Below, in pieces: positions 32,048 through 32,183 of a DNA stretch of 64,000 bases (positions within the stretch are counted from its first letter, which is position 1; each line of letters starts with the position of its first letter). The stretch is from assembly GCF_988242995.1 (NCBI RefSeq), contig NZ_OZ547043.1; one strand, 5' to 3'. The translations under genes and the position numbers were made by a program. Below the pieces are notes generated by a model. It was not told the DNA's origin. It ran no database searches and saw only the letters and a program-made list of their open reading frames with translations.

Positions 32048-32183
32048 TGTTTTTAGTCATCGTTATTCGACGGTAACAGTGGTTTTCAGCCGTTTTTTTT
32101 AGTTATATGTTTAGTTATACGGTCTGGCGGGTAGCTAAAACCGTATAACTAAAATCTGTTTTTTCCCGTGGATTCAAAAACGT

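Follow-up and report, generated by a model that had tools for sequence, protein, structure and literature searches.

The conspicuous short repeats near the two ends of an island integrated at the 3′ end of the Escherichia coli tRNA gene proL are very probably arm-type binding sites of the island's own P4-family integrase (Int), set on either side of the core of a P4-type attP; this is a prediction drawn from their positions and from comparison with relatives. It suggests what the repeats that stand out most in the non-coding DNA of the locus are for, and the accompanying boundary analysis corrects the limits of the island to 31980–40924, with insertion into the 3′ end of proL and an attP junction that can be tested by PCR. 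All positions refer to the window, that is, the whole 64-kb stretch of DNA that was analysed, which is E. coli chromosome and reads yejM, tRNA-Pro(GGG), the island and then yejO.

The 27-mer at 32097–32123, TTTTAGTTATATGTTTAGTTATACGGT, recurs in direct orientation at 40824–40850 as TTTTAGTTATACGTTTGGTTACACGAT, and reading the sequence at both sites confirmed the 23 of 27 identical positions reported in an earlier note on this DNA. At four or fewer mismatches the 27-mer is found at these two sites only, with both strands of the window searched, and no matches of this kind arose in dinucleotide-preserving shuffles of the window (0 of 200) or of the island (0 of 500). A repeat search stretched the similarity around the 27-mers to 39 nt at 79% identity (32083–32121 versus 40810–40848). 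Each 27-mer consists of two tandem 11-nt units 12 bp apart, and the locus holds five clear units with the consensus TTAGTTATACG together with one degenerate unit (Table 1). At zero or one mismatch the 11-nt unit is present at four places in the window, all of them within the two arms. The left 27-mer also takes part in a perfect inverted repeat, which proved to be longer than first described: its arms are 14 nt (32110–32123 versus 32140–32153) with a 16-nt spacer, and the 12-nt arms with an 18-nt spacer given before are a subset of it. The right arm of the inverted repeat as first described corresponds to the inverted unit at 32142..32152, which contains or abuts a −10-like TAAAAT (32150–32155). 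The distance from the end of the tRNA gene (31977) to the left 27-mer is 120 bp, and that from the 27-mer to the int ATG (32184) is 61 bp, in agreement with the earlier observation that the integrase gene starts just inside the left repeat.

The limits of the island were read from two empty-site alleles, those of E. coli K-12 NEB5-alpha and of strain M21170, both of which read GGTTCAAATCCTCTCGTGCCGACCAAAAATCCCAA. The window is identical to these alleles up to 31979 and again from 40918, with additional similarity, CTCTCGTG, from 40910 across a 2-nt gap, and because of this pattern of matches we place the island at 31980–40924. Among the E. coli records listed, the match of the left flank ends at 31979 in 25 of 30 and that of the right flank begins at 40910 in 21 of 30. 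The intervals 31980–32096 and 40851–40909 vary among island types while the chromosomal flanks stay constant, and by this comparison both intervals are island DNA. The two 27-mers thus lie inside the island limits, by 118 bp on the left and by 60 bp on the right.

These results bear directly on the reading first proposed for the 27-mers, namely that they are the attL and attR crossover repeats, bracketing the whole island as its limits, and that one copy had pre-existed as attB approximately 120 bp downstream of proL and was duplicated on integration. The 27-mers are indeed direct repeats around nearly the whole island and adjoin the integrase gene, as that reading would have them, but a search for the 11-nt unit found no copy in either the K-12 or the M21170 unoccupied site, the similarity of the window to these alleles breaks at 31979 and resumes at 40910/40918, and another direct repeat, derived from the tRNA 3′ end, falls exactly on the junctions. 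The alignment of empty-site alleles that the earlier note had itself proposed therefore puts the boundaries elsewhere than at the 27-mers, an outcome that the note had named as refuting its proposal, and the insertion junction at the tRNA 3′ end (31979), not some 120 bp beyond it. On the evidence of these alleles the crossover-repeat model is already refuted, and we leave it practically no probability. What survives of the attL/attR claim is its broader part: the repeats are part of the equipment with which the island carries out site-specific recombination, and they lie in the attL and attR regions in the wide sense of core plus arm, without being the duplicated crossover sequence.

The direct repeat made by integration is, as judged from the same alignment, the tRNA 3′ end, present as CTCTCGTGCCGACCAAA at attL and as CTCTCGTG--GACCAAA at attR; the unit motif TTAGTTATACG is distinct from this core sequence, CTCTCGTG(CC)GACCAAA. 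A search with the full 17-nt tRNA end at up to three mismatches missed attR owing to the 2-nt gap, and it was the empty-site alignment that revealed it. The form of attR that lacks the CC is also found in the related islands L002, L004 and L005, that is, it is common to diverged sister islands. Because attL carries the CC and attR does not, and because the CC-less form is shared by diverged sisters, we infer that the strands are exchanged on the right-hand side of the gap, inside the 7-bp segment GACCAAA (31973–31979 at attL and 40918–40924 at attR). The attR core is 2 nt shorter than attB, so the present-day mobility of the copy in the window is unproven. At both of its ends (31980–32700 and 40600–40909) the island is identical to that of strain LH13-b. 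The island-borne hairpin that follows the rebuilt tRNA would be a replacement terminator for proL; an equivalent hairpin is found at the same place in every enterobacterial relative, and the native proL terminator now lies past attR, at about 40930–40960.

Two related islands are probably no longer mobile. In the sister island L003 (strain RM9131) the attR, at about 29459–29500 of that record, reads CTCTCGTGCAAATCCC; it is without the GACCAA that the other islands have, a small deletion at the crossover site that probably fixes this island in place. In L002 (E. coli strain 23CRST013), whose island is near-identical to that of the window, an ISVsa5 (IS4-like) transposase gene overlaps the 3′ end of a shortened int (within 12953–14161 of that record), and this copy is probably immobilised.

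Table 1. Coordinates in the window of the proL island, its attachment cores and genes of recombination, and the predicted arm units of attP. Offsets are relative to the core in the rebuilt circle.
Feature	Position	Strand	Basis or remark
tRNA-Pro(GGG) gene proL, integration target, intact at left junction	31901..31977	+	ARAGORN; Rfam tRNA 54.9 bits; tRNA-Pro annotation in all E. coli records
attL core CTCTCGTGCCGACCAAA, tRNA 3′ end + 2 nt	31963..31979	+	identity to empty-site alleles stops at 31979
Integrated island, ~8.9 kb	31980..40924	+	missing from K-12 and M21170
Hairpin + T-run, island-borne, perfect 14-bp stem	32008..32045	+	just after rebuilt tRNA; in P′ arm between core and units
P′ arm unit 1 TTAGTTATATG	32099..32109	+ (direct)	starts +119 from core end; P4 counterpart +113
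P′ arm unit 2 TTAGTTATACG	32111..32121	+ (direct, 12-bp period)	starts +131; P4 counterpart +125
P′ arm degenerate inverted unit, + strand CGGGTAGCTAA, 3 mismatches	32128..32138	−	starts +148
P′ arm inverted unit, + strand CGTATAACTAA	32142..32152	−	starts +162; P4 counterpart +152
int, P4-family tyrosine integrase, 414 aa, N-terminal arm-DNA-binding domain	32184..33428	+	Pfam, NCBIfam, BLASTP
AlpA/Vis-like helix-turn-helix protein, 63 aa	33692..33883	+	PHROG 66, PHROG 2790 'excisionase and transcriptional regulator'; RefSeq helix-turn-helix regulator
P arm unit 1 TTAGTTATACG	40826..40836	+	ends 73 bp before core (−73); P4 counterpart 66 bp (−66)
P arm unit 2 TTGGTTACACG	40838..40848	+ (12-bp period)	ends 61 bp before core (−61); P4 counterpart 54 bp (−54)
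IHF-consensus match AATCAATTTGTTA	40880..40892	+	exact match to WATCAANNNNTTR; between P arm units and core; consensus match only
attR core CTCTCGTG--GACCAAA, partial tRNA 3′ end copy without CC	40910..40924	+	similarity to empty alleles resumes at 40910, unbroken identity from 40918

When attP was rebuilt by joining 40780–40924 to 31980–32186, the two sets of repeats came to flank the core, one on each side, at the offsets given in Table 1, and the int ATG came to lie 204 bp after the core. The predicted junction is AATTAAACTACTCTCGTGGACCAAA joined to TCGACCATAGTTAATC, giving the predicted attP product CTACTCTCGTGGACCAAATCGACCATAG and, on the chromosome, the predicted restored empty site CTCTCGTGCCGACCAAAAATCCC. 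The integrase has the domain composition expected of a reader of arm sites: Pfam PF13356 (Arm-DNA-bind_3) covers residues 8–94 (E 4.3e-25) and is followed by PF22022 and PF00589, the central and catalytic domains, the protein scores 557.6 bits against NCBIfam NF007246 (cut-off 434), and BLASTP aligns it to P4 Int at 35% identity over 405 aa (E 9e-84). The units accordingly display the features of arm-type sites, in that they lie inside the element, flank the core on both sides, repeat a motif that is not that of the core, accompany an Int with an arm-binding N-terminal domain and covary with that domain. The site as a whole displays those of a P4-type attP, with a core at the tRNA 3′ end, a tRNA rebuilt at attL, a P4-like layout of units and an Int homologous to that of P4.

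We propose that in the excised circle the right-end pair (40826–40848) and the left-end set (32099–32152) around the core would form a P4-type attP of approximately 250 bp. Int would act as a heterobivalent protein, with its N-terminal Arm-DNA-bind_3 domain on the arm units and its C-terminal domains binding and cleaving the core, and DNA bending, probably by IHF at 40880–40892, would unite arms and core in the intasome. The AATCA...GTTA block of the IHF-like site aligns in the related islands L002–L006. The island has two copies of the 13-mer AATCAATTTGTTA, which fits the IHF consensus exactly: the one between the P arm units and the core, and another at 39738–39750. The AlpA/Vis-like protein is a candidate excision directionality factor, and would tip the reaction towards excision.

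With the island integrated, the 85 bp ahead of int contain the P′ units, among them the inverted pair, through which Int probably represses its own promoter. This placement follows from int reading away from the core, and Int should for that reason repress its own gene; binding of Int at attL has been demonstrated to repress int for KplE1 IntS, and the same is reported for P4 Int (PMC2951348, citing Piazzolla et al. 2006). A scan for σ70 consensus promoters over 31850–32300, which includes the interval between the tRNA gene and int, found none, and the −10-like TAAAAT at 32150–32155 has no convincing −35. With no promoter found there, autoregulation is a prediction.

An int gene of this family is present at proL in approximately 450 of 5,426 complete E. 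coli genomes, at nucleotide identities from 100% down to 74.5%. The cargo of these proL islands differs (L003–L006, for instance, carry capsid, decoration and small-terminase genes), yet their last approximately 100 bp, including the right-end units, are conserved (about 80% identity). L003 and L004 carry four TTAGTTATACG units in the left arm, two of them direct and two inverted, and a direct pair in the right arm, and in L003–L006 a good inverted unit stands where the window has its degenerate one (32128..32138). Every unit in both arms of L005 and L006 is TTAGCTAyACG, a type that is also represented by the TTAGCTATACG unit of L009. Further proL islands were obtained from a scan of one genome per species: those of Brenneria (L010) and E. 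albertii keep TTAGTTATACG, whereas those of Erwinia psidii (L011), an Escherichia sp. and Citrobacter have TTGGGACTAG in all four to six left-arm units, and L011 has it also as two tandem units approximately 70–95 nt upstream of a perfect attR. The change of unit among relatives, between TTAGTTATACG, TTAGCTATACG and TTGGGACTAG, is therefore concerted across the copies and across both arms. In more distant relatives from Pasteurellaceae, Int is 44–48% identical and the insertion is at tRNA-Ser, -Met or -Leu. Ten of 12 such loci have two tandem units starting approximately 105–145 nt after the tRNA and then 1–5 inverted units before int, and 7 of the 12 have the TTAGTTATAC unit in common and, with it, the signature KLWRFNYY in the N-domain. 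Two phages with a contiguous attP, Klebsiella phage Kp4865-2 and phage phi467, both of the CP4-57 type that targets ssrA, also carry repeats close to int, but no obvious motif is common to the two sides, and these phages were left out.

This pattern of conservation bears on whether the inverted repeat at 32110–32153 might simply be an RNA or DNA hairpin, for example a structure or attenuator in the 5′ untranslated region of int, with the right-end copy incidental. The segment 32095–32186 does fold at −25.4 kcal/mol (z = −3.5 versus shuffles), although good folding is expected of any perfect inverted repeat. Among the relatives the inverted units number from 1 to 5 at variable spacing, so that no single hairpin is conserved, and the right-arm copies, which lack an inverted partner, are nonetheless conserved and change along with the others; nor did the σ70 scan detect a promoter upstream of the inverted repeat. 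The varying number and spacing of inverted units and the unpaired far-arm copies dismiss an RNA hairpin as the main explanation, and we consider a hairpin reading very improbable.

The unit motif tracks the N-terminal arm-binding domain of Int (PF13356) in these comparisons, and neither the catalytic body nor AlpA. Between the Int of the window and those of islands with the TTGGGACTAG motif (group C, such as Erwinia psidii and Citrobacter), the N-domain (residues 1–75) is 59% identical while the body (residues 100–400) is 82–85% identical; against the Int of L010, which has the same motif as the window, the N-domain is 76% and the body 75% identical. In a panel of 21 integrases, pairs matched at approximately 82% body identity have N-domains that are 82% identical if the motif is shared and 59% identical if the motifs differ. 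The covariation extends over three motif types among proL islands and further types in Pasteurellaceae, in sequences that are related and cannot be counted as phylogenetically independent. Once the island is circular, the core, both arms and the 5′ end of int are within approximately 500 bp of one another, so that a single tract of recombination could carry motif and N-domain along together in the absence of any functional link between them.

A regulator other than Int could also be imagined as the reader, since tandem att-arm repeats are bound by directionality factors in several elements, lambda and KplE1 among them (PMC2951348), an AlpA-like protein is encoded in the island, and some units lie upstream of int, where a repressor could act; the units would then be excision-control or operator sites of the AlpA/Vis-like protein or of another island regulator. 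However, the AlpA proteins of L010 and L011 agree at 51 of 59 residues (approximately 86%) and do not differ in the predicted helix-turn-helix stretch, while the unit motifs of these islands, TTAGTTATACG and TTGGGACTAG, are wholly different, and it is on this comparison, essentially a single informative pair, that AlpA was ruled out as the reader of the units. Sites of directionality factors, moreover, are usually in one arm whereas the units here are in both, their positions coincide with the arm repeats annotated in P4 attP, and the motif follows the N-domain of Int. Taken together, we regard a regulator of this kind as an improbable reader and retain Int as the protein that very likely recognizes the units.

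One feature counts against the arm-unit reading as it stands, because a simple 11-nt site leaves it unaccounted for. In each arm a conserved (A)CAGC box, at 32086–32090 and at 40813–40817, precedes the first tandem unit by 8–10 nt, and its presence in both arms accounts for the extension of the repeat to 39 nt; it is also found upstream of the first unit in Pasteurellaceae relatives (among loci L015–L051). The box could be part of a longer Int site or the site of a second protein.

Besides int and the alpA/vis-like gene, the island carries a C4 RNA with an icd-like gene and genes for DUF4222, a DUF927 primase/helicase, SSB, and ProQ/FinO-like, PerC-like and PmgG-like proteins. The C4 antisense RNA (Rfam RF01695) is at 34388–34475 on the + strand, with 76 bits against a gathering score of 45, and is directly followed by an ORF for an Icd-like cell-division inhibitor (34529–34717; NCBIfam NF033153); judged by its parts, the pair is an immunity cassette of the P1/P7 immI and P4 CI-RNA type. 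The ORF at 40088–40684 (+ strand, 198 aa) matches PHROG 1114 'PmgG-like head morphogenesis' (E 9e-60), the terminal 88 nt of the ORF are 85–89% identical to E. coli plasmids of 90–97 kb (a P1-like size), and the sister proL islands carry capsid and small-terminase genes in its place, which hints that the helper phage of this island differs from that of its sisters and is possibly P1-like. Units of GGGACAAGT/GGGACAGGT form two oppositely oriented clusters, at 37343–37506 and at 39652–39812. The first cluster, just after the DUF927 primase/helicase gene, includes three units with a 21-bp period (37455–37506), and the second lies approximately 2.2 kb downstream and contains the further IHF-consensus 13-mer at 39738–39750. 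By their resemblance to the paired iteron clusters ori and crr of P4, the two clusters may be the replication origin pair of the island.

No paper in the library searched describes the unit or the att sites of proL islands: a search for the unit sequence returned only unrelated primers, and searches on proL islands and on cf-PICI att sites returned nothing specific. The arrangement itself is ordinary and long known from P4 and lambda, and the locus is a clean further case that leaves current understanding unchanged. What the comparison adds is that Enterobacterales islands, and most of those compared from Pasteurellaceae, retain the attP plan of P4, with integrases down to approximately 35–45% identity, and that the unit sequence can be read directly from a genome and changes with the N-domain of Int, which can help to delimit islands at tRNA genes and to select orthogonal integrase/att pairs. 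Islands at the end of proL have at least three arm-site 'dialects' (TTAGTTATACG, TTAGCTATACG and TTGGGACTAG), each with a matching Int N-domain on a body kept at 82–85%. We raise as a tentative and rather doubtful idea that this reflects a modular swap of specificity by which satellites that share a cell, or that enter one, come to have orthogonal recombination systems; if so, the Int of one island could neither build an intasome on a rival at the same attB nor excise it nor repress its int.

The closest known system is P4, for which arm repeats flanking a core at a tRNA end are described (Pierson & Kahn 1987, J Mol Biol 196:487, as cited in PMC7286903 and PMC13023037) and whose GenBank record X51522 annotates 'attP arm sequence repeat' features. 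P4 and the proL island have in common the core at the 3′ end of a tRNA gene, two tandem units with a 12-bp period on each arm and an inverted unit on the int side (next to the int start in P4), with offsets that run in parallel (Table 1), an int that reads away from the core, and homologous integrases of the same three-domain build. They differ in the unit, TGGGGGCATA in P4 versus TTAGTTATACG here, and in the target, leuX versus proL. For P4 the 20-bp tRNA-Leu core is listed as one attP feature; in the proL island a 2-nt gap distinguishes attP from attB, with just 7 bp of identity to the right of the gap. In its P′ arm the island has, in addition, a fourth unit, which is degenerate, and a terminator hairpin, and its cargo is without sid, delta and psu.

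Lambda attP, with its arm-type sites P1, P2 and P′1–P′3 and its IHF sites, is the paradigm of heterobivalent Int binding (PMC2951348, PMC4880445). It shares with the proL island a short non-core motif on both sides of the core inside the element, an Int N-terminal domain as reader and a site for a bending protein between arm and core (both predicted for the proL island), and differs in integrase subfamily, in the fold family of the N-domain (PF13356 here), in the spacing and orientation of sites and in having a core that is not in a tRNA gene. Elements of the KplE1/HK620 type have an attL that overlaps the int promoter, with tRNA, attL and int co-oriented and P′ arm sites upstream of int as in the proL island, and in them Int and the directionality factor both repress int (PMC2951348); their integrase lineage and motif are unrelated, and for the proL island autoregulation is only predicted. 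PICIs and P4-like satellites of Enterobacterales (PMC8628076; cf-PICI literature) are likewise islands of approximately 9 kb beside a tRNA gene with int, alpA, a primase/helicase and an immunity cassette, whereas the island described here lacks capsid, sid, psu and delta genes and has the PmgG-like gene and the C4 RNA/icd cassette; it is a putative satellite.
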